A DNA stretch of 54,137 nucleotides from a virus (IMGVR_UViG_3300021400_000023), one strand, 5' to 3'. Counted from the stretch's first letter, positions 4,657 to 54,137 are shown. Numbers and translations are program-made. The notes: generated by a model not told the origin, from the letters alone.

Positions 4657-5602
4657 TGTAAATCACCGTCCCGTCAATCATCGTCGTTTCCAGCGCCTTG
4701 CGGCTATCCTCCGCCCACTTTTCCACCGTTTCCAGCAATACGCTGTATTCCTGCTTCTGGTCGTAGGGCATGGATGCAAATACCATCCTCATGTGCGGCA
4801 GGCGGGCAACCGTCCCGATAAACGCCCGCACGGCGGACGCGAAAGCATCCGGCGTCAGTTGATCCGCAGGCACGCGCTCTGCGTCGCCCTTGGCAATGGC
4901 GCTCTGAACGTTCAAAAGCTCCTGCTGGGCGCGGTTGATGTCCTCCTGCTGTTCGGCCAGAAGGTCGTCCCGTTCCCGAATTTCCCGCTGCAAATCGGCG
5001 TTTTCCTTGGAAAGCCGACGCTGTTCCGCCAGGGCCTCCGTGCCCACGGCGGCCAGCCGCTCAACCTCCGTCCGTTGCTGGGCGATGGTTTCCCGGCTCT
5101 TTGCCAGCTCGTCCGTCAGTTCCGGGGGGATTTCCGGCGGCCTGCTCTCTGCTTCCTCGGCGCGGCGCTCGGCATCCATGCGGGCCTTACGCTCCCGGTC
5201 AATCTCCGCCTGCGCTTCCTCCCGCGCCTTTTTCACGGCCTCCTGCACTTCCCGCGTCGTCATGGCTGAAACGTCGTGCTCCTCCATGAACTTTTCTTCC
5301 GTCCCGGCGGGAAGGGGCAGGAGTTTGAAAGTCTTGGCCTGTCCCAGCCCTTCAAACTGCGGTTTCCCGCCGAAGCGCTTATAGGCCGCCATCATGTCCT
5401 GCGCGGTGCGCTCGCTCACGTCGGCGTTTTCCTCCACCCATTTACCAAACTGGCCGTGCGGTATGATCTCCTTCGCCTCGGTGAACACGCGGGCGAGCTG
5501 CCACATATTCATGTTGATGTTCATGCGCAGCGTGCGCGCCTGCATCGCAAGGCCGTCAAGCACGCTGATTTCCTGGGTTTCGGTGTTGGCTAATTCCGTC
5601 AT
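4649..5602 (-). CDS. DUF3102-like protein with coiled-coil region
   Basis: The start is reassigned to the ATG at 5602, which has GGAGGAAAC upstream. HGQFGKWVEENADVSERTAQDMM resembles the remembered DUF3102 motif. Confidence 0.5.
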   Translation of the reverse strand: MTELANTETQEISVLDGLAMQARTLRMNINMNMWQLARVFTEAKEIIPHGQFGKWVEENADVSERTAQDMMAAYKRFGGKPQFEGLGQAKTFKLLPLPAGTEEKFMEEHDVSAMTTREVQEAVKKAREEAQAEIDRERKARMDAERRAEEAESRPPEIPPELTDELAKSRETIAQQRTEVERLAAVGTEALAEQRRLSKENADLQREIRERDDLLAEQQEDINRAQQELLNVQSAIAKGDAERVPADQLTPDAFASAVRAFIGTVARLPHMRMVFASMPYDQKQEYSVLLETVEKWAEDSRKALETTMIDGTVIYSE

Positions 5603-5610
5603 GTTTCCTC

Positions 5611-5982
5611 CTAATCTGCGTTTGCACGCAATTCCTGGTAGTTGTCCGGCGGAGCGGGTCGCGGTGCCCACTTCCGCACGTCGCTGGGCTTTTCTACCTG
5701 ATGCCAGCCACGCACGCGCAGATCGCCGTGACTGTCAATGACGAGGATGCAGGATTGAGGGTCTGCGTCCTCCTTGGTCGGCAGCCTGTCGTGCGGGTCG
5801 ATCCACTCCGTCGGCGGCTCCTGCCAGTACACATTGAAGCGGTTTTCGCGGGCTTTGAGGGTGCTGTACACCATGGCCCCTTGAAAGACGTGCCACACGA
5901 TGATGTAGCGCGCGTCCTCCTTGTTCTCTGCAATCGGACAGGTGGATATGTCCTTCCATCCGTTATTGCCCATCCTGCCCAC
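5611..5982 (-). CDS. Hypothetical protein with DUF551-like WIxxxDRLP motif
   Basis: 123-aa ORF containing EWIDPHDRLPTKED. Confidence 0.45.
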   Translation of the reverse strand: MGRMGNNGWKDISTCPIAENKEDARYIIVWHVFQGAMVYSTLKARENRFNVYWQEPPTEWIDPHDRLPTKEDADPQSCILVIDSHGDLRVRGWHQVEKPSDVRKWAPRPAPPDNYQELRANAD

Positions 5983-6576: not shown

Positions 6577-6705
6577 TGGCGGGAATGGCCGGAATTGAAC
6601 CGGCGCCCTGCGGAATGGTTACGGGTTTTCCTCTAACAGCAATCCGCCCCGTCGGACGGGCTGCCACTTTCTTTACCACCGCTCTACCATTTGAGCTACA
6701 TTCCC
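6577..6705 (-). tRNA. tRNA-like gene with canonical acceptor, D and T arms and encoded CCA, but 129 nt long (about 53 extra nt in the anticodon region)
   Basis: Minus-strand read: GGGAATG-TA-GCTC-AAATGGTA-GAGC ...(76 nt)... GCCGG-TTCAATT-CCGGC-CATTCCC-G-CCA. Confidence 0.5.
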
Positions 6706-10004: not shown

Positions 10005-11621
10005 ATGAAAACCGTTAAAACCCAAAGCGGCGCGACGAAAGCGGTAATCTATGCCCGCTATTCGTCCCACGGCCAGACGGAGCAATCCATAGAGGGCCAG
10101 TTGCATGATAACTACGCCTGGGCGAAACAGCAAGGGATCACCGTCATAGGCGAATATATAGACCGCGCCCTGACAGGTACAAAGGACGCCCGCCCGGACT
10201 TCCAGCGAATGATTGAGGACGCGGCCAAGCGTCAGTTTGAAATGGTGATCGTCTGGAAGCTGGACAGGTTCGCCCGCAATCGCTACGACAGCGCCATCTA
10301 CAAGGCCCGTCTGAAAAAGTACGGCGTCAAGGTCGTGTCCGTAAAAGAGAACATCACCGACAGCCCGGAAGGAATTATCCTGGAAGGGCTGCTGGAGAGC
10401 ATGGCGGAATACTACTCGGCCAATCTTTCGCAGAACGTCAAGCGCGGACTGCGCGAGAGCGTGGAAAAGGGGTATTACTGCGGCGGCAGCATCCCATACG
10501 GCTACAAGGCGGAAAACCACCGCCTTGTCCCGGACGAGAAAACCGCGCCCATCATCCGCTATGTGTTTGAGGAGTACGCCAAGGGCACGTCCAAGAAGGA
10601 GATCATCGACGAGCTGAACCGGCGCGGCGTGCGCAACGGGAAGGGAAACCCGCTGACATATACATCCTTCCAGCACGCCCTACGCATGACCACCTATATA
10701 GGGGAGTATGTCTATCAGGGAAAGGTCGTGCCCTGCGCCGATCCTCTGGTGACGCGGGAAGTGTTTGACAAGGTGCAGGCCCGCCTTGACCGGCGCGCTC
10801 ATGCTCCCGCCGCTGCCAAGGCCCGCGTCCCGTATCTGCTACAAGGGAAAGCCTGGTGCGGCCTGTGCGGCGCGCCCATGTTTGGGGAAAGCGGTACGTC
10901 GCACACCGGCGCGCTCCACACCTATTACTGCTGCTACAATCGGAAACGGAAAAAGGGATGCAAGAAGAAAACCGAGCGCCGCGATAAGCTGGAAACCTTC
11001 ATCGTCGCCCGGACGATGGATTATATCTTGACGCCATCCCGTATGAACAGGATAGCAAAGGCCGTCGTGCAGGAGTATAACAAGGAGTTCTCCGGCTCCC
11101 GCGTGGAGGATATGGAAAAGGCCATCGCACAGATAGACCGGGAAATGGACAAGCTGGTGGACGCCCTAATTGACGCGCCCAAGGCCGCGCACAAGAAAAT
11201 CTATGCCCGCATGGAAACGCTGGAAGTGCAGAAAGCGGAGTTTGAAACCGACGCGGCCAAGCTGCGCGTCGCTATGGGCCTCCGCCTGACGGAAAAGGAA
11301 GTCGTGTCCTGGCTAAAGACCTTCCGCGACGGCGATCCCGACGATCCCGATTTCCGCCGCCGTCTGGTGGACATCTTCATCAATGCTGTGTACGTCTACG
11401 ACGACAGGATCATAGTCTTTTATAACATCCGGGGAGGCAAACAGGTGTCGAGCAAAGACCTGTACGAAGCCCTGGAAAGCCCGAAAGATAAAGAAAATTC
11501 CAAACCCGAAACAGGTTCGGATTTGGAATCATCTGGCGGGGCGGGTAATTCTAAATCCGAACCCGAATTTGTATTTGTGCATGGCGTCTTTGGGTGCATT
11601 TTCCCATGGGGCGAGGGATGA
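10005..11621 (+). CDS. Large serine recombinase (integrase)
   Basis: Resolvase-type N-terminus AVIYARYSSHGQ...DRFARN, a recombinase domain, a Cys-rich zinc ribbon (CGLCGAPM...YYCCYNRKRKKGC) and a coiled-coil tail. 538 aa. Confidence 0.92.
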   Translation: MKTVKTQSGATKAVIYARYSSHGQTEQSIEGQLHDNYAWAKQQGITVIGEYIDRALTGTKDARPDFQRMIEDAAKRQFEMVIVWKLDRFARNRYDSAIYKARLKKYGVKVVSVKENITDSPEGIILEGLLESMAEYYSANLSQNVKRGLRESVEKGYYCGGSIPYGYKAENHRLVPDEKTAPIIRYVFEEYAKGTSKKEIIDELNRRGVRNGKGNPLTYTSFQHALRMTTYIGEYVYQGKVVPCADPLVTREVFDKVQARLDRRAHAPAAAKARVPYLLQGKAWCGLCGAPMFGESGTSHTGALHTYYCCYNRKRKKGCKKKTERRDKLETFIVARTMDYILTPSRMNRIAKAVVQEYNKEFSGSRVEDMEKAIAQIDREMDKLVDALIDAPKAAHKKIYARMETLEVQKAEFETDAAKLRVAMGLRLTEKEVVSWLKTFRDGDPDDPDFRRRLVDIFINAVYVYDDRIIVFYNIRGGKQVSSKDLYEALESPKDKENSKPETGSDLESSGGAGNSKSEPEFVFVHGVFGCIFPWGEG

Positions 11622-13054: not shown

Positions 13055-13327
13055 ATGACAACGATTAGCCGCGAACAATTCCGGGTGCTTGAAGGGATCG
13101 CATATTGGCGGGCGGAAATCGCCTGGACGGTTGAAAGATACGGGGCCGACGACGTGGATTTGCCAAAATTCCGCGCAACCCTTGAAAGCCTGCTTGACGA
13201 AGCGGATCGAAAGTCGATCCCGTGGGCGGTACAGAATAACGTGCTTGTGTTCGCTGAAAATTGGCGGGCCGAAAAAAGCCGCTATTTGGATTGCGTGCTG
13301 CTTGAAAAGGGCGTCAAGGTTGCGTAA
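13055..13327 (+). CDS. Hypothetical protein (first island gene)
   Basis: ATG is preceded by AGGAGGCCAACACC. 90 aa. Confidence 0.65.
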   Translation: MTTISREQFRVLEGIAYWRAEIAWTVERYGADDVDLPKFRATLESLLDEADRKSIPWAVQNNVLVFAENWRAEKSRYLDCVLLEKGVKVA

Positions 13328-13424
13328 AGTCGAAACGCGGCGGGGCCGCGTCCGCCGGGGATCGCCTCCCGGCGCTGATGATGGCAGGCGAACACAACAC
13401 CGAATTTTTAAGGAGGCCAACACC

Positions 13425-14321
13425 ATGAAGGATCTGTATTCTGAAATCACCAACGGTATTATTGAACAGCTGGAGCAGGGCGTTATCCCGTGGAAAAAGC
13501 CCTGGACGGGCGTCAATTCCGGCGCTATCAGTCACGCAACGGGCCGCGCGTATAGCCTGCTGAATCAGATGTTGCTTGCCCGCCCCGGTGAATATATCAC
13601 CTTCAATCAGTGCAAGCAGGAGGGCGGCAAGGTCAAGAAGGGCGCGAAGTCAAAAATTGTCGTGTTCTGGAAGGTGCTGCCCCGTGAAAAGAAGGACGCC
13701 GACGGAAACATTATCACCAACGCCGACGGCAAGCCGATCATTGAAGGGCTGCCCGTGCTCCGTTACTTCCAGGTGTTTCATATCGACGATTGTGAAGGGA
13801 TCGCCCCGAAATGGGAAAACAAGCTGCCCGCCGTCGCAAGCCCCGACGAACGCGCCGAAAATGTTTTGATGGATTATGTACGCCGGGAAAACATTCGTCT
13901 TGAAAACGTGATAGGCGACAGGGCGTATTATTCCCCCTCCCGTGACCTTATCCGGCTGCCGATCATGGAGCAATTCGACAGCACCGCCGAATATTACGGC
14001 ACCGCGTACCATGAAGCAACCCATAGCACCGGCCACGCAACGCGGCTAAACCGTTTCACCGGGGACGCTGCCGCCGCCGCTTTCGGCTCCGAATCGTACA
14101 GCAAAGAGGAGCTTGTCGCGGAAATCGGCTCCGCCTGCTGCCTGCATGAATTGGGCCTTGAAACGCCGTCCAGCTTCAAAAACTCCGCCGCCTATATTCA
14201 GTCCTGGCTCCGCGTTTTGAAGGACGACAAGCGAATGATTATCAGCGCCGCCGCCCGCGCCGAAAAGGCCGTCAAGCTGATTTTCAACATCACCGACAGC
14301 AAGCAGGCGGACGGGGAATAA
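13425..14321 (+). CDS. ardC: ArdC-like antirestriction protein (ssDNA-binding N-domain plus HExxH metalloprotease-like C-domain)
   Basis: ATG at 13425 follows AAGGAGGCCAACACC. Motifs are IPWKKPW, ...RYFQVFH... and YHEATHSTGH. Confidence 0.8.
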   Translation: MKDLYSEITNGIIEQLEQGVIPWKKPWTGVNSGAISHATGRAYSLLNQMLLARPGEYITFNQCKQEGGKVKKGAKSKIVVFWKVLPREKKDADGNIITNADGKPIIEGLPVLRYFQVFHIDDCEGIAPKWENKLPAVASPDERAENVLMDYVRRENIRLENVIGDRAYYSPSRDLIRLPIMEQFDSTAEYYGTAYHEATHSTGHATRLNRFTGDAAAAAFGSESYSKEELVAEIGSACCLHELGLETPSSFKNSAAYIQSWLRVLKDDKRMIISAAARAEKAVKLIFNITDSKQADGE

Positions 14322-20274: not shown

Positions 20275-20496
20275 TCACTTCCTGCCTTGCTTCTGCCTGT
20301 ACCGTTTGATCGCCATAGCGCGCTTCATTCCGTGTGTGGCGGCCTCTTTCAGCGCCCTTTCCTCCGCCCGCTCCTTCCTCCGCTTCTCGCACCAGGCGGC
20401 AAAGCGGGCGTACCGCTCGCAATCTGCGTGACACGTTGCCGATCTTTCCGGGCAATCCTTTACGCATGGATTGTCCACCACGTCGCCCCTGCTCAT
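20275..20496 (-). CDS. Small Cys-rich protein
   Basis: The ATG at 20496 forms an ATGA overlap with the recombinase stop. The sequence contains CVKDCPERSATCHADC. Confidence 0.5.
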   Translation of the reverse strand: MSRGDVVDNPCVKDCPERSATCHADCERYARFAAWCEKRRKERAEERALKEAATHGMKRAMAIKRYRQKQGRK

Positions 20497-21101
20497 GCCC
20501 GCGCCCGCTTTCCCGTCAGCATGTTCAGCTTCATAAGGCTTTCGTCGATATTCTCCTGGATCACGCCGATGTAAACGAGCGTTTCCCGTTGGTAGCTGTG
20601 GCACAATATCCTTTGCAAGCTCACCACGTCGCCGGTCATTTTGTAATAGTGATAGCCGAAGGTCTTTCGCAGCGTATGGCACCCGATCCGCTCCTCTACG
20701 CCCGCCTCGCGGGCTATGTGGTTGATGATCTGATAGCACCGCTGCCGCGATATGGGCCGGTATTTGTGGGTAGCGCTGTCCTTCTGGCGGCTCTGGAGGA
20801 TATACTCGTCCGCCTTTCTTCCGGCCAGCAGACGGTTGATCTCCCGCCGCGCTTGGGGGTTTATCAGTATGCGGGCTTCCTTCCCGGTTTTCTTGGCCTG
20901 TATCTGCGCGTAGTCCTTGCCCCTCAAATCCTGCACCTTGAACCGCCGGAAGTCACTCACGCGCAGGCTGGTATTAAAGCCAATCAGCAAGATCAATTCC
21001 CAGCACACTTCCCCCGTTTTCCTGTGCTTGTCGTGCTCCCGCGCAATGTCGTAACACTTTTGCAATACATCCAGATCGCGGATGGGCTGCACAACCTTCA
21101 T
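20493..21101 (-). CDS. Short stand-alone tyrosine recombinase (catalytic domain only, 202 aa)
   Basis: Candidate catalytic residues are LRVSD (Arg), CHTLRKT (His-x-x-Arg) and HSYQRETLVYIG (His...Tyr). Confidence 0.7.
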   Translation of the reverse strand: MKVVQPIRDLDVLQKCYDIAREHDKHRKTGEVCWELILLIGFNTSLRVSDFRRFKVQDLRGKDYAQIQAKKTGKEARILINPQARREINRLLAGRKADEYILQSRQKDSATHKYRPISRQRCYQIINHIAREAGVEERIGCHTLRKTFGYHYYKMTGDVVSLQRILCHSYQRETLVYIGVIQENIDESLMKLNMLTGKRARA

Positions 21102-23602: not shown

Positions 23603-23754
23603 GCCTTATCCTCCTTTTTGCGCTTTCGTCGTATTCCGTGCGGATAGTGCGTCCATGCGATGCCGACAATGCAAACCACGCTGAAAAGAATAAATAAAAG
23701 GGCCAGCGCCCCTATAAAGATCGCTGCTTCCAGCAGTTCACGCGGCAATTTCAT
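23599..23754 (-). CDS. Small transmembrane protein
   Basis: The ATG at 23754 forms an ATGA overlap with the RT stop. TM segment AAIFIGALALLFILFSVVCIVGIA. Confidence 0.45.
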   Translation of the reverse strand: MKLPRELLEAAIFIGALALLFILFSVVCIVGIAWTHYPHGIRRKRKKEDKA

Positions 23755-25154
23755 AAATAGACCACCTCCGCGCTGGCGCACCAGTCGTCATAGCGCGCCC
23801 TGATGTCCTCCTCCATCCCGTCGAACGGCTCCACGCCTCGCACAACGAGCATTTCCACGTCGTAGTCTGTCGCGCCGTCCTCCGTCGTCAGGGGCAGCAC
23901 ATGGGGCCGCAGATACACGTCTACCGTGCCGTCCTCCTGCTCCTGGATGGTATAAAAATGCCGCCTCCCCGGCGGCTGATCGCTCTCAATATTCATATTG
24001 TCGCACCTTTGAAGTACAAAGTGTTCCTCGATCCAGCGGATCATGTTGTGACCGTTACAATGCTTGCACATCCCGATATAGCAGATCACGCTTTCCATCG
24101 CCGCGTCATAGCTGATTTGCCATGCGGCAAAGGCCGCCATGATGAAGCGCAGGCTCCGCTTGATGTGTGTCGTGGTCTTTCGTCTCATGCGGATGCCGTG
24201 CGGCGTCAGCAGATAACCCACGAACTCAACCGGGGCCGTCGCCTTTTGGATTCTGCTTTTCGGGCTGATGTCAAGCAGCAGCTCGTCCCGAAGAAAGGTT
24301 TCGATGGCGGCGAATATTCGCTTTGCATTCTCCTTGCCCTTGACGAGGATGCAGAAATCGTCCATATAGCGCACATAGTAGTGTACTTTCAGCGTGCGCT
24401 TGATGAATTGATCCAGCTTGTCCAGAAACAGGTTGGCCGTTTCCTGGCTCGTCAGGTTGCCGATGGGCATACCCACATCAAAGAGCCGCCGCCATCGCGG
24501 GCAATCATCCGGCTTCATCCCCGGAGGCAGGCCGAAAGGCACGTCCGGGTTATTGATGATTGTCCGCATAAGCCAGCGAAACCAGGCGTCGTCTGATACC
24601 TCGTCGTAGGTATTCAGCACCTTCCCGTGTTCAACCCTGTAAAAGTATTTGCTGATGTCGCCCTTGATAAGATACCATTCGTCCGCGTCCGGCTTCCGGC
24701 TGATCTTCTGCTGCCAGTTTTGCAGGCACTCCGCCGCTGGCAGCGTTCCTTTGCCCTTCCGGCACCCGTAGCTGTGCGTGATATATCGCTTGTCCAGATA
24801 TGGGTTGATTTGCCGGTAAATGGCCCATTGCACAACGCGATCCCGAAAGCCCAGCGCCATGACGAGCCTCGGCTTCGGGTAGCGTACATAAAATTCCCGA
24901 TATGGCCCCACCTTGTAGGTCATATCCAGTAGCTCTTTCTGTATCTGGTGCAGATTCGCGCCCAGGTTGAAAGAGAAGTCCAAAACCTCATTGCGATACC
25001 GTTTCCCCTTTGCGGCGTCCCGGTAAGCGCCCATCAGGTTTTCAAAATCACAGATGCGGTCTTTCAGATTGTGCAGCCCTTCCAAAACATTCACCCCGCC
25101 CTGTGAACTGCCGCGCGTGACGTGTTCCGTCAGGCATAGACTGTAATGCCCCAA
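23751..25154 (-). CDS. DGR reverse transcriptase
   Basis: RT motifs include PIGNLTSQ (the DGR-type motif 4) and YVRYMDDF (YxDD box). 467 aa. Confidence 0.9.
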   Translation of the reverse strand: MGHYSLCLTEHVTRGSSQGGVNVLEGLHNLKDRICDFENLMGAYRDAAKGKRYRNEVLDFSFNLGANLHQIQKELLDMTYKVGPYREFYVRYPKPRLVMALGFRDRVVQWAIYRQINPYLDKRYITHSYGCRKGKGTLPAAECLQNWQQKISRKPDADEWYLIKGDISKYFYRVEHGKVLNTYDEVSDDAWFRWLMRTIINNPDVPFGLPPGMKPDDCPRWRRLFDVGMPIGNLTSQETANLFLDKLDQFIKRTLKVHYYVRYMDDFCILVKGKENAKRIFAAIETFLRDELLLDISPKSRIQKATAPVEFVGYLLTPHGIRMRRKTTTHIKRSLRFIMAAFAAWQISYDAAMESVICYIGMCKHCNGHNMIRWIEEHFVLQRCDNMNIESDQPPGRRHFYTIQEQEDGTVDVYLRPHVLPLTTEDGATDYDVEMLVVRGVEPFDGMEEDIRARYDDWCASAEVVYL

Positions 25155-25356
25155 ATCGCTTTAGGGTATGCTGCGGACAGCCATAGCCCGTTGCCCTTCC
25201 GGGCGCTTCGCGGTGATTCCTGCCGCGCGTTTCCTGCGGAGCGTTCTTGCCGCTGCGCGTCAGGATTTTTGTTTAGCCCCTTCGGGCCGAGGAAACGCAC
25301 CCCTCCCATCAGCGGATGGCCGCTGATTCGTAATCTCGCGGCGCGTAATATATGCT

Positions 25357-25476
25357 GGGAGCGGGGGCGGCACCCATAGTTGTTGTTGGCGTTGCCGCGC
25401 TCGTTGTTGGCATTGACATAGCCAAGCCCCGCGTTGCTGCCGTTGTTGTAGTTGCCGCCGCGACGGGGGAAGCGCT
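25357..25476 (-). repeat. DGR template repeat (TR)
   Basis: 120 bp matching 26085-26204 at 107 of 120 positions. In the sense strand it carries AAC/TAC/TAT codons at the sites that differ. Confidence 0.9.
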
Positions 25477-25505
25477 AAAGAACGCATGGATTCAGACCGT
25501 CCAAA

Positions 25506-25928
25506 TCACGGCACGTTCCCTCTGCTATCGCCACTCTTGCGGCCAGATACGCTATTCATCCAGCCGCCGATCAAAGCCCCGATCTCGTCAATCTTCTTTG
25601 ACCATTCGCCGTAGCTCTGATCCGTGAGCAATCGCCTTGTTTTTCCGCTCTTGTCCGTGAAAATGATCTTGTTCGCCTGCTGGATGAAGATGTCCAGCAC
25701 GGCCTTGCTGGTGTCCAAGTCGGCCAGCGTGCTTTTGTTCATGTACCGCAGGCGGGCCTTTGTTGCCAGCCGCAGCATCGTGTACATTTCCTGCATGATG
25801 TCCACGCCCAGGCTCCGCTTATGGAAGCTCGGCCAGCGCTCCACGATGGGGCGCGCGTATTGGATCATGTCGTCGATTTTCTGGCAGCATGGCCCCGGAT
25901 TGCTCCTGTCGTACTTAAATTCCGGCAT
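25506..25928 (-). CDS. avd: DGR accessory variability determinant (Avd, four-helix-bundle type)
   Basis: 140-aa basic helical protein located between VR and TR. The call rests on position and size. Confidence 0.75.
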   Translation of the reverse strand: MPEFKYDRSNPGPCCQKIDDMIQYARPIVERWPSFHKRSLGVDIMQEMYTMLRLATKARLRYMNKSTLADLDTSKAVLDIFIQQANKIIFTDKSGKTRRLLTDQSYGEWSKKIDEIGALIGGWMNSVSGRKSGDSRGNVP

Positions 25929-25964
25929 ATCATTCTCTCCGTCCGGCGGATATTATTTTCCCCA

Positions 25965-26002
25965 TCACGCGCGCGTCATGGAAACTATTAACGCGCGCGT
26001 GA
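25965..26002. promoter_or_regulatory. Perfect 12-bp inverted repeat (TCACGCGCGCGT-14 nt-ACGCGCGCGTGA) downstream of VR
   Basis: Read directly from the sequence. It lies between the target stop (26080) and the avd start (25928). Confidence 0.6.
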
Positions 26003-26079
26003 TAACGGGGAAAGGGATGTATGGGGCACGCCCTATCGGGCGGCCCCGGTCAGGGGTTCAGTATTCAGTTTCCAGGGGT

Positions 26080-27294
26080 TCAGAGGGAGCGGGGGCGGCA
26101 CCCATAGACGACGTAGGCGTTGCCGCGCTCGTTGTTGGCATTGACACAGCCAAGCCCCGCGCCGCTGCCGGAGTTGAAGGCGCCGCCGCGACGGGGGAAG
26201 CGCTCGCCCGCCACGAAGTTGACGTAGTAATAGCCGGGGGTGTCGTCGCCCGCGCCGGTCTTGATAAGGCCCAGCTCGTAAACGATGCTCGGCACATAAG
26301 GCAGGCGCGTGGTGTTCACCGCAACCGTGCTGAAACTTTCGCCCTTCGCGCCCACGGTCAGGTCGTCGCATTGCGTGTCCAGGGTGATATGCCCGTTCAG
26401 CCAGTTCCAATGGAGCGTGCCAGCCGTGCCGGGGGCGACGAGGGTATAGCCGTTGTCGCTGGTGTTCGGCAGGATCGCGCGCCACGCGGCGGAAGAAGCG
26501 GACAGGTCGGCGTCCGGGTCGGCGGCGTTGTTGTTCTCCAGGATTTGCAGCTCACAGTCCACGATGCGGTAGCCGTACTGCTGTTCCAGGCTGGAGCCGA
26601 TGATGTCCGCCAGCAGGGCCGGGTCGCTGCCCAGATACCAGTCCAGCGGGCCGGTGCCGTTCAGCGTCCGATAGCCGGTCTGATGGGCCGCGTCGGGCGT
26701 GCCGTCGTTGCTGATGCCGCCCACAAACTTGCCCTTCTCCCAATAGGTCGGGGCCAGGTCGGGCCGCAGCTCCGCCGCCGTGGTGTGGGCAATCAGGCAC
26801 TTGTAAATGTACCCGTTGTAGGCTCTTTCCGTGTTCACGGACAGCGCCTTGCCGGTTTCCCAGGCGCTCGCGTCCTGGTGTGCCTGCCCCCAGGCGGTAT
26901 TTCCGTGCGGCTTCCAGCCGTTCTTCTGCGCCAGCAGCTTGATAAAGCCGTAGTCCGCACAGGTCATGCCGGTAATGCCGGGGCCAGCCAGCTTCATGCG
27001 GGAAAGGCACTGATCCGCGCCCAGGCTCCGGGCCGGGTTGATGTTCGGCAGGCTCACCAGCGCGCCGCCGGAAACGCCGTTCTCGCCGCCCTTGTACTTG
27101 CCAAGCAGAATGTAATCCTGCTCCACGCCATTGATGATAAAGGCCGGGTGCGTGTGCTCCGGCAGCCCCGCCACCAGGTCGGAGCTTTTCATTTTGGGAA
27201 ATTTGACGAAGATACCGGCCACGTTGCCGTCCGCGTCGTACTTCACGACGTTACCGTACTTCTTCGCCAGAAATTCAAGAGGGCTGTTATTCAT
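26080..27294 (-). CDS. DGR target protein: putative receptor-binding tail fibre with C-terminal variable region
   Basis: It is the last gene of the tail module. The C-terminus ...RRGGAFNSGSGAGLGCVNANNERGNAYVVYGCR carries the VR. An internal CBM5/12-like motif reads AWETGKALSVNTERAYNGYIYKCLIAHT...PTYWE. Confidence 0.85.
   Translation of the reverse strand: MNNSPLEFLAKKYGNVVKYDADGNVAGIFVKFPKMKSSDLVAGLPEHTHPAFIINGVEQDYILLGKYKGGENGVSGGALVSLPNINPARSLGADQCLSRMKLAGPGITGMTCADYGFIKLLAQKNGWKPHGNTAWGQAHQDASAWETGKALSVNTERAYNGYIYKCLIAHTTAAELRPDLAPTYWEKGKFVGGISNDGTPDAAHQTGYRTLNGTGPLDWYLGSDPALLADIIGSSLEQQYGYRIVDCELQILENNNAADPDADLSASSAAWRAILPNTSDNGYTLVAPGTAGTLHWNWLNGHITLDTQCDDLTVGAKGESFSTVAVNTTRLPYVPSIVYELGLIKTGAGDDTPGYYYVNFVAGERFPRRGGAFNSGSGAGLGCVNANNERGNAYVVYGCRPRSL
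26085..26204 (-). repeat. DGR variable repeat (VR)
   Basis: It has 13 mismatches to TR. All are at plus-strand T, which is sense-strand A of TR. Confidence 0.9.
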
Positions 27295-27457
27295 CCGTGC
27301 CGCCCTCCTCCATCATTTCGACGAGTTCCTGGTACTCCTCCACGGTGATGCGGTCAGCCATCAGGAAAACGTCGAGCTTCTGCAAGGTGGATTCGCGGTC
27401 AAGATTGCCCTTCTTGATGCCGTTCTCGATGATCCGCTTCATCAGCTTGTAAGTCAT
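27287..27457 (-). CDS. XkdX-like small tail-module protein (paralog 2)
   Basis: The start is set at the internal ATG at 27457 after GGAGGTAAACACC. MTYKLMKRIIENGIKKG...ITVEEYQELV parallels the upstream paralog. Confidence 0.55.
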   Translation of the reverse strand: MTYKLMKRIIENGIKKGNLDRESTLQKLDVFLMADRITVEEYQELVEMMEEGGTDE

Positions 27458-27534
27458 GGTGTTTACCTCCATTCCTTTCAGAATTTTGTTATACTGCCGG
27501 TCAATGATTTTCCCGGCGATCCAGGCCGTCAGGC

Positions 27535-27696
27535 TCATTCGTCCATCAGCCCCACAAGCTCCCTGTACTGGTCGGCGGTCAGCCGGTCAGCGGCCAGAAA
27601 GGCGTCCAGCTTGTCCATGATCCCGGCCCGCTTTTCCTCCAGCGTGCCGTCCTTCTTCGCGTTCAGAATGATCCGCTTCATCAGGTTATAGGCCAT
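27535..27696 (-). CDS. XkdX-like small tail-module protein (paralog 1; below the ORF-track size cut-off)
   Basis: Hand translation gives MAYNLMKRIILNAKKDGTLEEKRAGIMDKLDAFLAADRLTADQYRELVGLMDE. Its stop overlaps the next ATG (ATGA). Confidence 0.55.
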   Translation of the reverse strand: MAYNLMKRIILNAKKDGTLEEKRAGIMDKLDAFLAADRLTADQYRELVGLMDE

Positions 27697-53779: not shown

Positions 53780-54137
53780 TTATTTCTCTATCTTCTGCAC
53801 TCGTTCAAATGGTTCATCAAGCAGCAGTTCAAGGCCGGTCTTTGCCAGCACTTCGTCGCACAGCTCCGAATGATTGAGCGCCCAAATGATCTTCTCGTCC
53901 ACGGCCTTGATGGCCCGGAAAGCCCGGTTTTCCCCGAAACCAAATTCATCATGCAGCGCAAGGATGATCCCCGCGTAACAGCACTTGATGATCGGCTCCG
54001 CCGCCTGCCGGAAGCCCTCTTGGCGGCCCTCCTCGCGGGCATTGTCCAAATCCTGCGCGGTGATCCCGTTGTGCTCAATGATCTTGCGCACCTGTTCGCG
54101 CACTTCCATCTTCCGGCGAAATTTCTCCTGGTTCGCC
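53780..54137 (-). CDS. 3' part of the junction-spanning hypothetical gene (5' end truncated by the window edge; see 1..274)
   Basis: The frame is continuous across the 107-bp overlap. The track Met at 54109 is internal (Met66). Confidence 0.6.
   Translation of the reverse strand, partial: ANQEKFRRKMEVREQVRKIIEHNGITAQDLDNAREEGRQEGFRQAAEPIIKCCYAGIILALHDEFGFGENRAFRAIKAVDEKIIWALNHSELCDEVLAKTGLELLLDEPFERVQKIEK
54031..54137. repeat. Terminal direct repeat copy 2
   Basis: Identical to bases 1-107. Confidence 0.9.

Follow-up and report, generated by a model that had tools for sequence, protein, structure and literature searches.

The viral sequence IMGVR_UViG_3300021400_000023 (54,137 nt, analysed over its whole length and referred to here as the window) carries on its minus strand the genes and repeats of a diversity-generating retroelement (DGR), in the order target gene, accessory variability determinant gene (avd), template repeat (TR), spacer (Sp) and reverse transcriptase (RT), with the variable repeat (VR) at the 3′ end of the target gene (Table 1). 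A first-pass annotation had proposed such an element here, and the gene set that it described, a 404-aa target, a 140-aa Avd and an RT open reading frame (ORF, 23751-25154) containing the motifs PIGNLTSQ and YVRYMDD, was recovered at matching coordinates. The window begins and ends with an exact 107-nt direct terminal repeat (1-107 and 54031-54137) which shows it to be a complete phage genome, circularly assembled and about 54 kb long.

Table 1 Features of the retroelement and its target site, numbered from the first nucleotide of the window
Feature	Position	Strand	Description	Evidence
Target gene	26080-27294	-	404 aa, TaqVP/Mtd-like DGR variable protein, VR at C-terminus	ORF, PDB sequence and profile matches
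CBM5/12-like module	26737-26865	-	Chitin-binding type, aa 144-186 of the target	Pfam and profile matches
Variable repeat (VR)	26085-26204	-	Codons 364-403 of the 404-aa target	Repeat search, MAFFT
VR-specific spacer	26048-26084	-	Non-coding, with stop codon and CTGA(A) repeats	Conserved in 12 relatives
Target-site hairpin/cruciform	26023-26047	-	GC-rich stem of ~10 bp, 4-nt loop GATA	DNA fold, covariation
Second hairpin	25957-26013	-	13-bp perfect stem between target and avd	Fold; only some relatives
avd	25506-25928	-	140-aa accessory variability determinant	Pfam, PHROG
avd strand of avd:Sp duplex	25510-25520	-	5′ strand GGGAACGUGCC, last avd codons	Pairs with 25291-25301
Template repeat (TR)	25357-25476	-	28 adenines; 11 AAC/AAT codons in VR frame	Repeat search, MAFFT
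Spacer (Sp)	25086-25356	-	271 nt, structured	Consensus fold with covariation
Reverse transcriptase (RT)	23751-25085	-	DGR RT, likely start TTG 25085 (444 aa), open frame to 25154	Pfam, PDB, PHROG
Small gene	23751-23996	-	81 aa, own ATG, read in frame as RT C-terminus	Homologues standalone

The template and variable repeats

The TR and VR form the sole long direct repeat of the region, 120 nt at 89% identity. Aligned with MAFFT, the two copies match without a gap over all 120 nt and identity collapses outside both ends. Read on the sense (minus) strand they differ at 13 positions, and all 13 are adenines in the TR, changed to G five times, to T five times and to C three times. With 28 adenines among the 120 nt of the TR, 13 random mismatches would all fall on A with a probability of P = 4.3e-10 (hypergeometric). 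The first-pass annotation had aligned the repeats by hand and placed every mismatch at an adenine; the machine alignment, which has zero non-adenine mismatches, bears this out, and the plus-strand example that had been given, ttgttgtt in the TR corresponding to acgacgta in the VR, is correct. Immediately past the motif GCTCCC the TR and VR diverge, and the end of the repeat that they share is GC-rich (GGGTGCCGCCCCCGCTCCC).

The ORF that contains the VR is intact, and mutagenesis at the adenines of the TR can turn no codon into a stop. The coding capacity of the TR amounts to 4^28 = 7.2e16 DNA sequences, or 3.5e16 peptides. A scan of both strands with the TR, tolerating changes at A, together with sensitive blastn and a tblastn search with the target, returned no second VR or target in the window, ruling out a second pair of the kind reported in the Faecalibacterium phage FP_Lagaffe (hereafter Lagaffe). 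As the window is a complete genome, the element has one target.

Conserved structures in the RNA and at the target site

Relatives have a GGAGG-type ribosome-binding site 5′ of a conserved TTG codon, at 25085 in the window, which is most likely the RT start and which gives the spacer its length of 271 nt. The consensus fold of the spacer over 11 relatives comprises 45 pairs, 22 of them compensatory, with 97.8% of alignment cells paired as against 37-46% in slid controls, and this covariation was reached by none of 500 shuffles. A stem-loop directly after the TR (25319-25342) has compensatory changes in seven of its eight pairs. The structure of the BPP-1 RT-Avd-RNA particle contains a TR:Sp template:primer duplex, an avd:Sp duplex termed 'cPRT Stop', a short stem-loop and unpaired adenosines (bioRxiv 10.1101/2023.10.23.563531), and this model served as the guide in locating two duplexes in the window. 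In the first, CUCCCA at the 3′ end of the TR (25356-25361) pairs with UGGGAG in the spacer (25303-25308), a helix that is invariant in 17 relatives save for one AU-to-GC swap and whose spacer side is a candidate for the primer strand. In the second, 1 nt from the first, the spacer sequence GGUGCGUUUCC (25291-25301) forms 11 pairs with the GGGAACGUGCC of the last avd codons; in 17 sequences 98.9% of the cells of this helix are paired, with three compensatory positions and five one-sided positions that are wobble-compatible, and by analogy the duplex is probably the counterpart of 'cPRT Stop'. A stem-loop followed by an A-rich tract (UAAACAAAAAUCC) occupies 25263-25290, and further long-range helices lie within the spacer.

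At the target site, a hairpin composed of GGGGCCGCCC-GATA-GGGCGTGCCCC is located 37 nt downstream of the VR. The DNA fold of its region has a z-score of -6.7, and in 12 relatives seven of the nine aligned pairs are compensatory, with 93.5% of cells paired, a share that is 36-64% in slid controls. In these relatives the loop invariably reads G[A/G][T/C]A and fits the GRNA consensus of the BPP-1 element, in which retrohoming requires a hairpin or cruciform with a GC stem of 7-10 bp and a 4-nt GRNA loop (PMC3240598). The interval between the target stop codon and the hairpin contains CTG/CTGAA columns that are invariant in the 12 relatives, with the motifs 7-8 nt apart, and that are absent after the TR; by analogy, this VR-specific spacer may set the directionality of the reaction in the manner of an initiation of mutagenic homing (IMH) sequence. 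The second hairpin, between target and avd, was ruled out as the target hairpin of the DGR given its lack of conservation among relatives: the window and the related loci L001, L008 and L009 have it, and elsewhere it is missing or differs. It is not a conserved part of the DGR and may act as a terminator or attenuator. A promoter and terminator scan found nothing exceeding shuffled expectation.

Classification of the reverse transcriptase and Avd

The RT matches the Pfam family RVT_1 (E = 7.5e-20) and PHROG_1423 (E = 9e-111), and its best structural match is PDB entry 8ub7 (E = 6.6e-40), with RT residues 28-380 aligned to residues 6-324 of 328. We infer, in place of a database label, that 8ub7 is the Bordetella phage RT bRT, because of its 328-aa length, its IGSLTSQ and YMDD motifs and the nine entries sharing its sequence, which correspond to the nine complexes described in bioRxiv 10.1101/2023.10.23.563531. 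Matches of the RT to group II intron RTs and to chains described as 'retron-type' are at about 1e-13 or weaker (6ar1, 1.9e-13). Among NCBIfam models the group II intron RT/maturase is the best, at 102 bits against a cutoff of 300, and the retron RT model scores 32 bits against 235; no DGR-RT family is among these matches, in a library that appears to be without a DGR-RT model. The spacer RNA matches no Rfam family and the interval 24900-26300 contains zero Rfam matches at E ≤ 1, and neither a group II intron or retron RNA nor an RT score above the cutoff of such a family is found at the locus.

The same conclusion is reached from the relatives, whose loci were retrieved through RT homology alone, with the TR unused in the retrieval. 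A TR/VR pair of 112-122 nt with mismatches all or nearly all at TR adenines is present at 44 of the 51 viral RT-homologous loci and at 12 of the 14 closest genome loci. These comparisons support the grouping of the RT with DGR RTs and not with those of group II introns or retrons, as the first-pass annotation had proposed from its motifs. The Avd protein is recognised by Pfam bAvd PF22296 (E = 8.5e-19, 68.5 bits, gathering score 40) and by the PHROG 'Avd protein of DGR' (E = 5e-23), and has no direct PDB sequence match.

The target protein

The target matches PDB entry 5vf4 both by sequence (E = 6.7e-33) and by profile (E = 2e-38 over aa 203-402). This entry is the DGR variable protein TaqVP of Thermus aquaticus, which has a C-type lectin fold (PMC6328139). 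Over aa 1-400 the target is 29% identical to the Lagaffe protein annotated as 'BPP-1 major tropism-determinant-like protein'. The alignment to 5vf4 breaks at aa 150-185, exactly at the site of the carbohydrate-binding module (CBM) of the CBM5/12-like type, and the module is therefore an insertion in a TaqVP-like scaffold. It is recognised by Pfam CBM_5_12 (E = 3.3e-5, 24.3 bits, slightly below the gathering score of 26.2) and by a profile match to the binding domain of chitinase A1, 1ed7 (E = 2.2e-5), and its segment has a predicted local distance difference test score (pLDDT) of 74-87 in the AlphaFold2 (AF2) model of the target. Besides this borderline module, no Pfam family was found on the target.

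Variation among relatives

A search with the target returned 566 homologues, the best 120 of which are 75-88% identical and many of which lie on contigs of about 50-54 kb. Per-column entropy over 119 homologues is mostly below 1.5 bits and climbs to about 3 bits where the TR has AAC/AAT codons, the high-entropy residues being 372, 374, 375, 378, 385, 387, 388, 392, 394, 395 and 396. Residue 376 reaches 2.2 bits although its codon in the TR of the window is GGC.

Across the cassette, six genomes (L001, L002, L003, L052, L053 and L126) share 97.8-98.5% identity with the window. Their TRs differ from that of the window at 0 of 120 positions, while their VRs differ from the VR of the window at 13-20 of 120 positions, and all seven VRs are distinct. 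Six of the VRs together carry a substitution at 25 of the 28 adenine sites; roughly half of all adenine sites are altered, to G, T or C, and the single change at a non-adenine is a C-to-T in L053. Identical TRs beside seven different VRs, varying in an adenine-specific manner in genomes that are about 98% identical, support repeated mutagenic retrohoming in the recent history of the lineage.

Three of the related loci have an unusual arrangement of their own. In L001 (1446-4412) and L003 (5065-8031), a 1752-bp tandem duplication corresponding to 27592..25826 of the window (the target and its flanks) gives two target copies, whose VRs are the same within each contig and different between the contigs; either the duplication arose very recently or the assembly is at fault at a hypervariable site. 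In L007 (5354-5721 of IMGVR_UViG_3300026522_000005, the same contig as L093, with an RT 79% identical), the TR is split by a 248-nt insertion (5412-5659) that Rfam assigns to the group I catalytic introns (RF00028, E = 2e-20, 78.7 bits with a gathering score of 50). The two halves of this TR match the VR contiguously with adenine-only mismatches (5 + 8), and the last nucleotide is U in the 5′ exon and G in the insert. Since the TR acts as RNA, the template would be regained by self-splicing. An intron embedded in a TR was seen on this one contig only; the 46 other matches to its core 28-mer, all on different contigs, are unrelated phage group I introns.

The in-frame extension of the RT

The RT ORF continues for about 85 residues beyond the ends of bRT and the Lagaffe RT, and its last 81 codons are a neighbouring small gene that is read in frame. 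This gene retains an ATG of its own (23996), preceded at 7 nt by AAGGTG, and ends in a stop codon that overlaps the start of the next gene (ATGA), so that it is translationally coupled to the 51-aa membrane protein and endolysin genes downstream. A search of 1.8 billion representative proteins gave 103 homologues of the RT tail, almost all of them standalone proteins of 65-135 aa. At L073-75 and L051 the small gene is a separate ORF just after or overlapping the end of the RT, and at L076-78 two genes stand between it and a different DGR RT upstream, and the membrane protein and endolysin follow it directly. The in-frame, stop-free arrangement is confined to a subclade with RTs at least ~72% identical (plus L013, at ~66%), and the gene is out of frame elsewhere. 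The 81-aa protein is modelled by AF2 with a pLDDT of 86 and has no match in Pfam, PHROGs, PDB or BFVD (structure search not significant); it belongs to an uncharacterised, widespread family of small phage proteins with the conserved pattern FYxI...DGTVDVYL...VRGV.P...EEDIRxRYxxW.

The simplest reading of these sequences is that the subclade lost the RT stop codon and that the RT now reads into a resident late gene. A DGR-specific domain was considered and rejected as the main reading, given that the homologues are mostly standalone, often out of frame or separate, and coupled to the lysis cassette. It is very doubtful that the extension is a functional C-terminal accessory domain of the DGR RT, the alternative being accidental read-through into the neighbouring gene; if it were functional, possible roles would be to anchor the RT-Avd-RNA particle or to link retrohoming with the expression of late or lysis genes.

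Genomic context

The genes 5′ of the target on the minus strand encode a tape-measure protein, a baseplate wedge, Baseplate_J, Tail_P2_I, three small proteins, and an 83-aa and a 53-aa paralogue, and those 3′ of the RT encode the 51-aa membrane protein, a GH25/SH3 endolysin, a holin and an integrase. From these flanking genes, the cassette lies at the junction of the tail and lysis genes of a temperate phage with a baseplate of the contractile-tail type. The phage is temperate and myovirus-like, of rumen or gut Clostridia. Neither a near-identical cultured phage nor any nucleotide-level match to the window was found in INPHARED, and the nearest genomes are contigs of metagenome-assembled genomes (MAGs) of Clostridia and Oscillospiraceae from sheep rumen and from other herbivore or gut sources.

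The two paralogous genes that adjoin the target (27287-27538, 83 aa, and 27535-27696, 53 aa, both on the minus strand) share a 78-nt DNA repeat of 71% identity, and both belong to phrog_2310. Their products presumably resemble tail-end proteins of the XkdX type. The junction that holds the cassette is also occupied by a DGR in the related prophage L076 (2714-4500), where a different element combines a TR/VR pair of 141 nt, whose 13 mismatches all lie at A, with a 571-aa target and an RT that is only 24% identical and was overlooked by the gene caller. No Avd homologue was detected at this DGR. An initial description of L076-78 as relatives without a DGR was wrong in view of this element, and DGRs of more than one type appear to occupy the tail-lysis junction repeatedly in this phage group.

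Elsewhere, genes for a large serine recombinase (10005-11621) and for a tyrosine integrase-like protein (20493-21101) are both present in the window. A type II hammerhead ribozyme (13328-13393, plus strand; RF02276, 50.8 bits against a gathering score of 37) stands just 5′ of the point at which a match to phrog_7245 (anti-restriction-like) starts within the ORF 13089-14321, and probably sits in the 5′ leader of this anti-restriction-like gene. A tRNA-like gene (6580-6705, minus strand; RF00005, 50.1 bits) has intact acceptor, D and T arms and, in place of the 9-nt anticodon-loop region, 62 nt that fold as a hairpin of their own. ARAGORN makes no tRNA call at this position, and the gene could be an intron-containing or disrupted tRNA.

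Proposed mechanism and alternative explanations

All parts of the element are present and intact, its RNA and DNA structures are conserved, and its VR turns over in an adenine-specific manner in the lineage. The first-pass annotation had called the DGR complete, which holds for the target, Avd, TR and RT and extends to the GRNA-loop hairpin, the TR:Sp and avd:Sp duplexes and the structured spacer, conserved with covariation. We consider it very likely that the minus strand of this temperate, myovirus-like phage, whose hosts are rumen or gut Clostridia, carries a complete BPP-1-type DGR, and that the element operates by a mechanism whose biochemical steps we infer by homology to BPP-1. In this mechanism, a transcript of the avd 3′ end, the TR and the 271-nt spacer would fold by pairing CUCCCA with UGGGAG and the avd 3′ end with the adjacent spacer. 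The RT and an Avd pentamer would copy the TR into cDNA, misincorporating at the 28 template adenines, and the cDNA would take the place of the VR in the 3′ end of the gene for the 404-aa target, directed there by the GC-rich repeat end and the GRNA-loop hairpin, 37 nt downstream. In the predicted C-terminal ligand-binding face of a TaqVP/Mtd-like protein this would randomise as many as 16 codons, of which 11 are Asn AAC/AAT, and would produce no stops. From its position and homology, the target is probably a receptor-binding tail protein, and tropism switching, which the first-pass annotation took to be implied, would be a reasonable expectation.

Several points weigh against this reading. The distance between hairpin and VR is slightly outside the 4-34 bp reported for other phage DGRs (PMC3240598). 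The NCBIfam model DivGenRetAVD scores Avd at 69.3 bits, under its cutoff of 80. No tail-fibre family matches the target, on which a weak match to a PHROG 'tail protein' is limited to the VR region. The AF2 model of the target, built on a shallow alignment of 46 homologues of 75-88% identity, has a mean pLDDT of 58 and falls below 50 in the VR segment; with the VR unusable, it was set aside for fold searches, and because the model is poor the C-type lectin fold is proposed from sequence homology. The evidence for repeated retrohoming holds for the lineage and not for this copy, so that the earlier description of the element as apparently active stands for the lineage, with its identical TR and seven VRs in seven genomes, and does not cover the copy in the window. 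Finally, some cultured Faecalibacterium prophages with intact DGRs, including Lagaffe_CP, have no VR heterogeneity in reads (PMC11792537).

The lack of a tail-fibre domain match on the target bears on one alternative, that the DGR is active but that its target is a virion or secreted adhesin for glycans, mucus-like or environmental ligands, with no tropism switching. The CBM5/12-like module inserted in the target would fit such a role, other gut-phage DGRs target Hoc-like decoration proteins (PMC5883640), and the authors of the related Faecalibacterium study called the function of the targets unknown (PMC11792537). We nevertheless regard this alternative as unlikely, since the target comes directly after the baseplate J, P2 I-like and small tail-end genes and before the lysis cassette, as does the Mtd-like target of Lagaffe, since the interval from the baseplate to the lysis genes contains no further candidate for receptor binding, and since the target has homology to the Mtd/TaqVP class.

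A second alternative is that the DGR looks intact but is now silent or decaying, with the VR differences among relatives stemming from past activity. The invariant reads of the Faecalibacterium prophages are in its favour, as is the RT without a stop codon of its own, which could in principle be impaired by running into the next gene. Against this, every ORF and catalytic motif is intact, the TR shows perfect conservation, structural selection acts on the cis RNA elements, genomes about 2% diverged each carry a different VR (VR divergence 13-17%), and the in-frame layout of RT and small gene is common to many relatives with adenine-specific VRs. These observations make a silent element quite improbable. 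The last alternative, that the repeat is a drifted ordinary duplication and the RT that of an unrelated group II intron or retron, draws on the top NCBIfam match of the RT and is refuted by the low score of that match (102 bits against 300), the confinement of mismatches to adenines (P = 4e-10) and its recurrence at 44 of 51 RT-related loci, the lack of any group II intron or other Rfam RNA in 24900-26300, the adjacent Avd, and an RT far nearer to the DGR RT structure.

Comparison with known elements and significance

Our preferred reading, an intact BPP-1-type DGR, can be set beside three described systems. The element resembles the BPP-1 DGR (mtd-avd-TR-brt) in the order and orientation of target with 3′ VR, avd, TR, spacer and RT, in its adenine-only TR-to-VR differences, in the IGxxxSQ and YMDD motifs of the RT, in the GC-rich repeat end and GRNA-loop hairpin after the VR, and in the succession of TR:Sp duplex, avd:Sp duplex, then a stem-loop and an A-rich tract. 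It differs from BPP-1 in having a spacer of 271 nt as compared to 140 nt, a hairpin 37 nt from the VR with the gap filled by conserved CTGA repeats, a target that is nearer to TaqVP than to Mtd (to which it has no direct PDB sequence match) and that contains the CBM5/12-like insertion, an RT ORF that runs in frame into an unrelated 81-aa gene, and a Gram-positive anaerobe as the host of the phage. The best homologue of the target with a solved structure is TaqVP, which aligns with almost the entire target protein, the VR segment at the C-terminus included; TaqVP displays the variable residues on a C-type lectin fold and is a cellular and not a phage protein (PMC6328139), whereas the target in the window is a phage protein with a 40-aa CBM5/12-like insertion at the alignment break.

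The closest described relative is the DGR of Lagaffe (Lagaffevirus), which was described in 2018 (Cornuault et al., PMC5883640) and re-examined in 2024 (PMC11792537). The two elements share a neighbourhood of baseplate J-like, P2 I-like and three small genes, Mtd-like target, Avd-like gene, RT and lysis genes; the RTs are 46% and the targets 29% identical, Lagaffe has a TR/VR pair of its own (115 nt, 13 of 13 mismatches at A), and both phages are temperate phages of gut Clostridia. Lagaffe has no nucleotide-level similarity to the window, a second VR and target reported for it (PMC11792537) where the window has one, and an RT without the in-frame small-gene extension, and the lineage of the window comes from rumen or herbivore-gut MAGs.

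DGRs of this architecture have thus already been described in cultured Faecalibacterium phages (PMC5883640, PMC11792537), and the element is a further example of a well-known system that leaves the understanding of how DGRs work unchanged. It adds a well-resolved DGR from an uncultured phage lineage of rumen or gut Clostridia, with seven natural VR variants of one invariant TR, and the covariation indicates that the architecture of the BPP-1 RT-Avd-RNA particle is kept in a distant Gram-positive phage despite a spacer twice as long. The element is of use for annotating the boundaries of DGRs and for picking compact DGRs for engineering.

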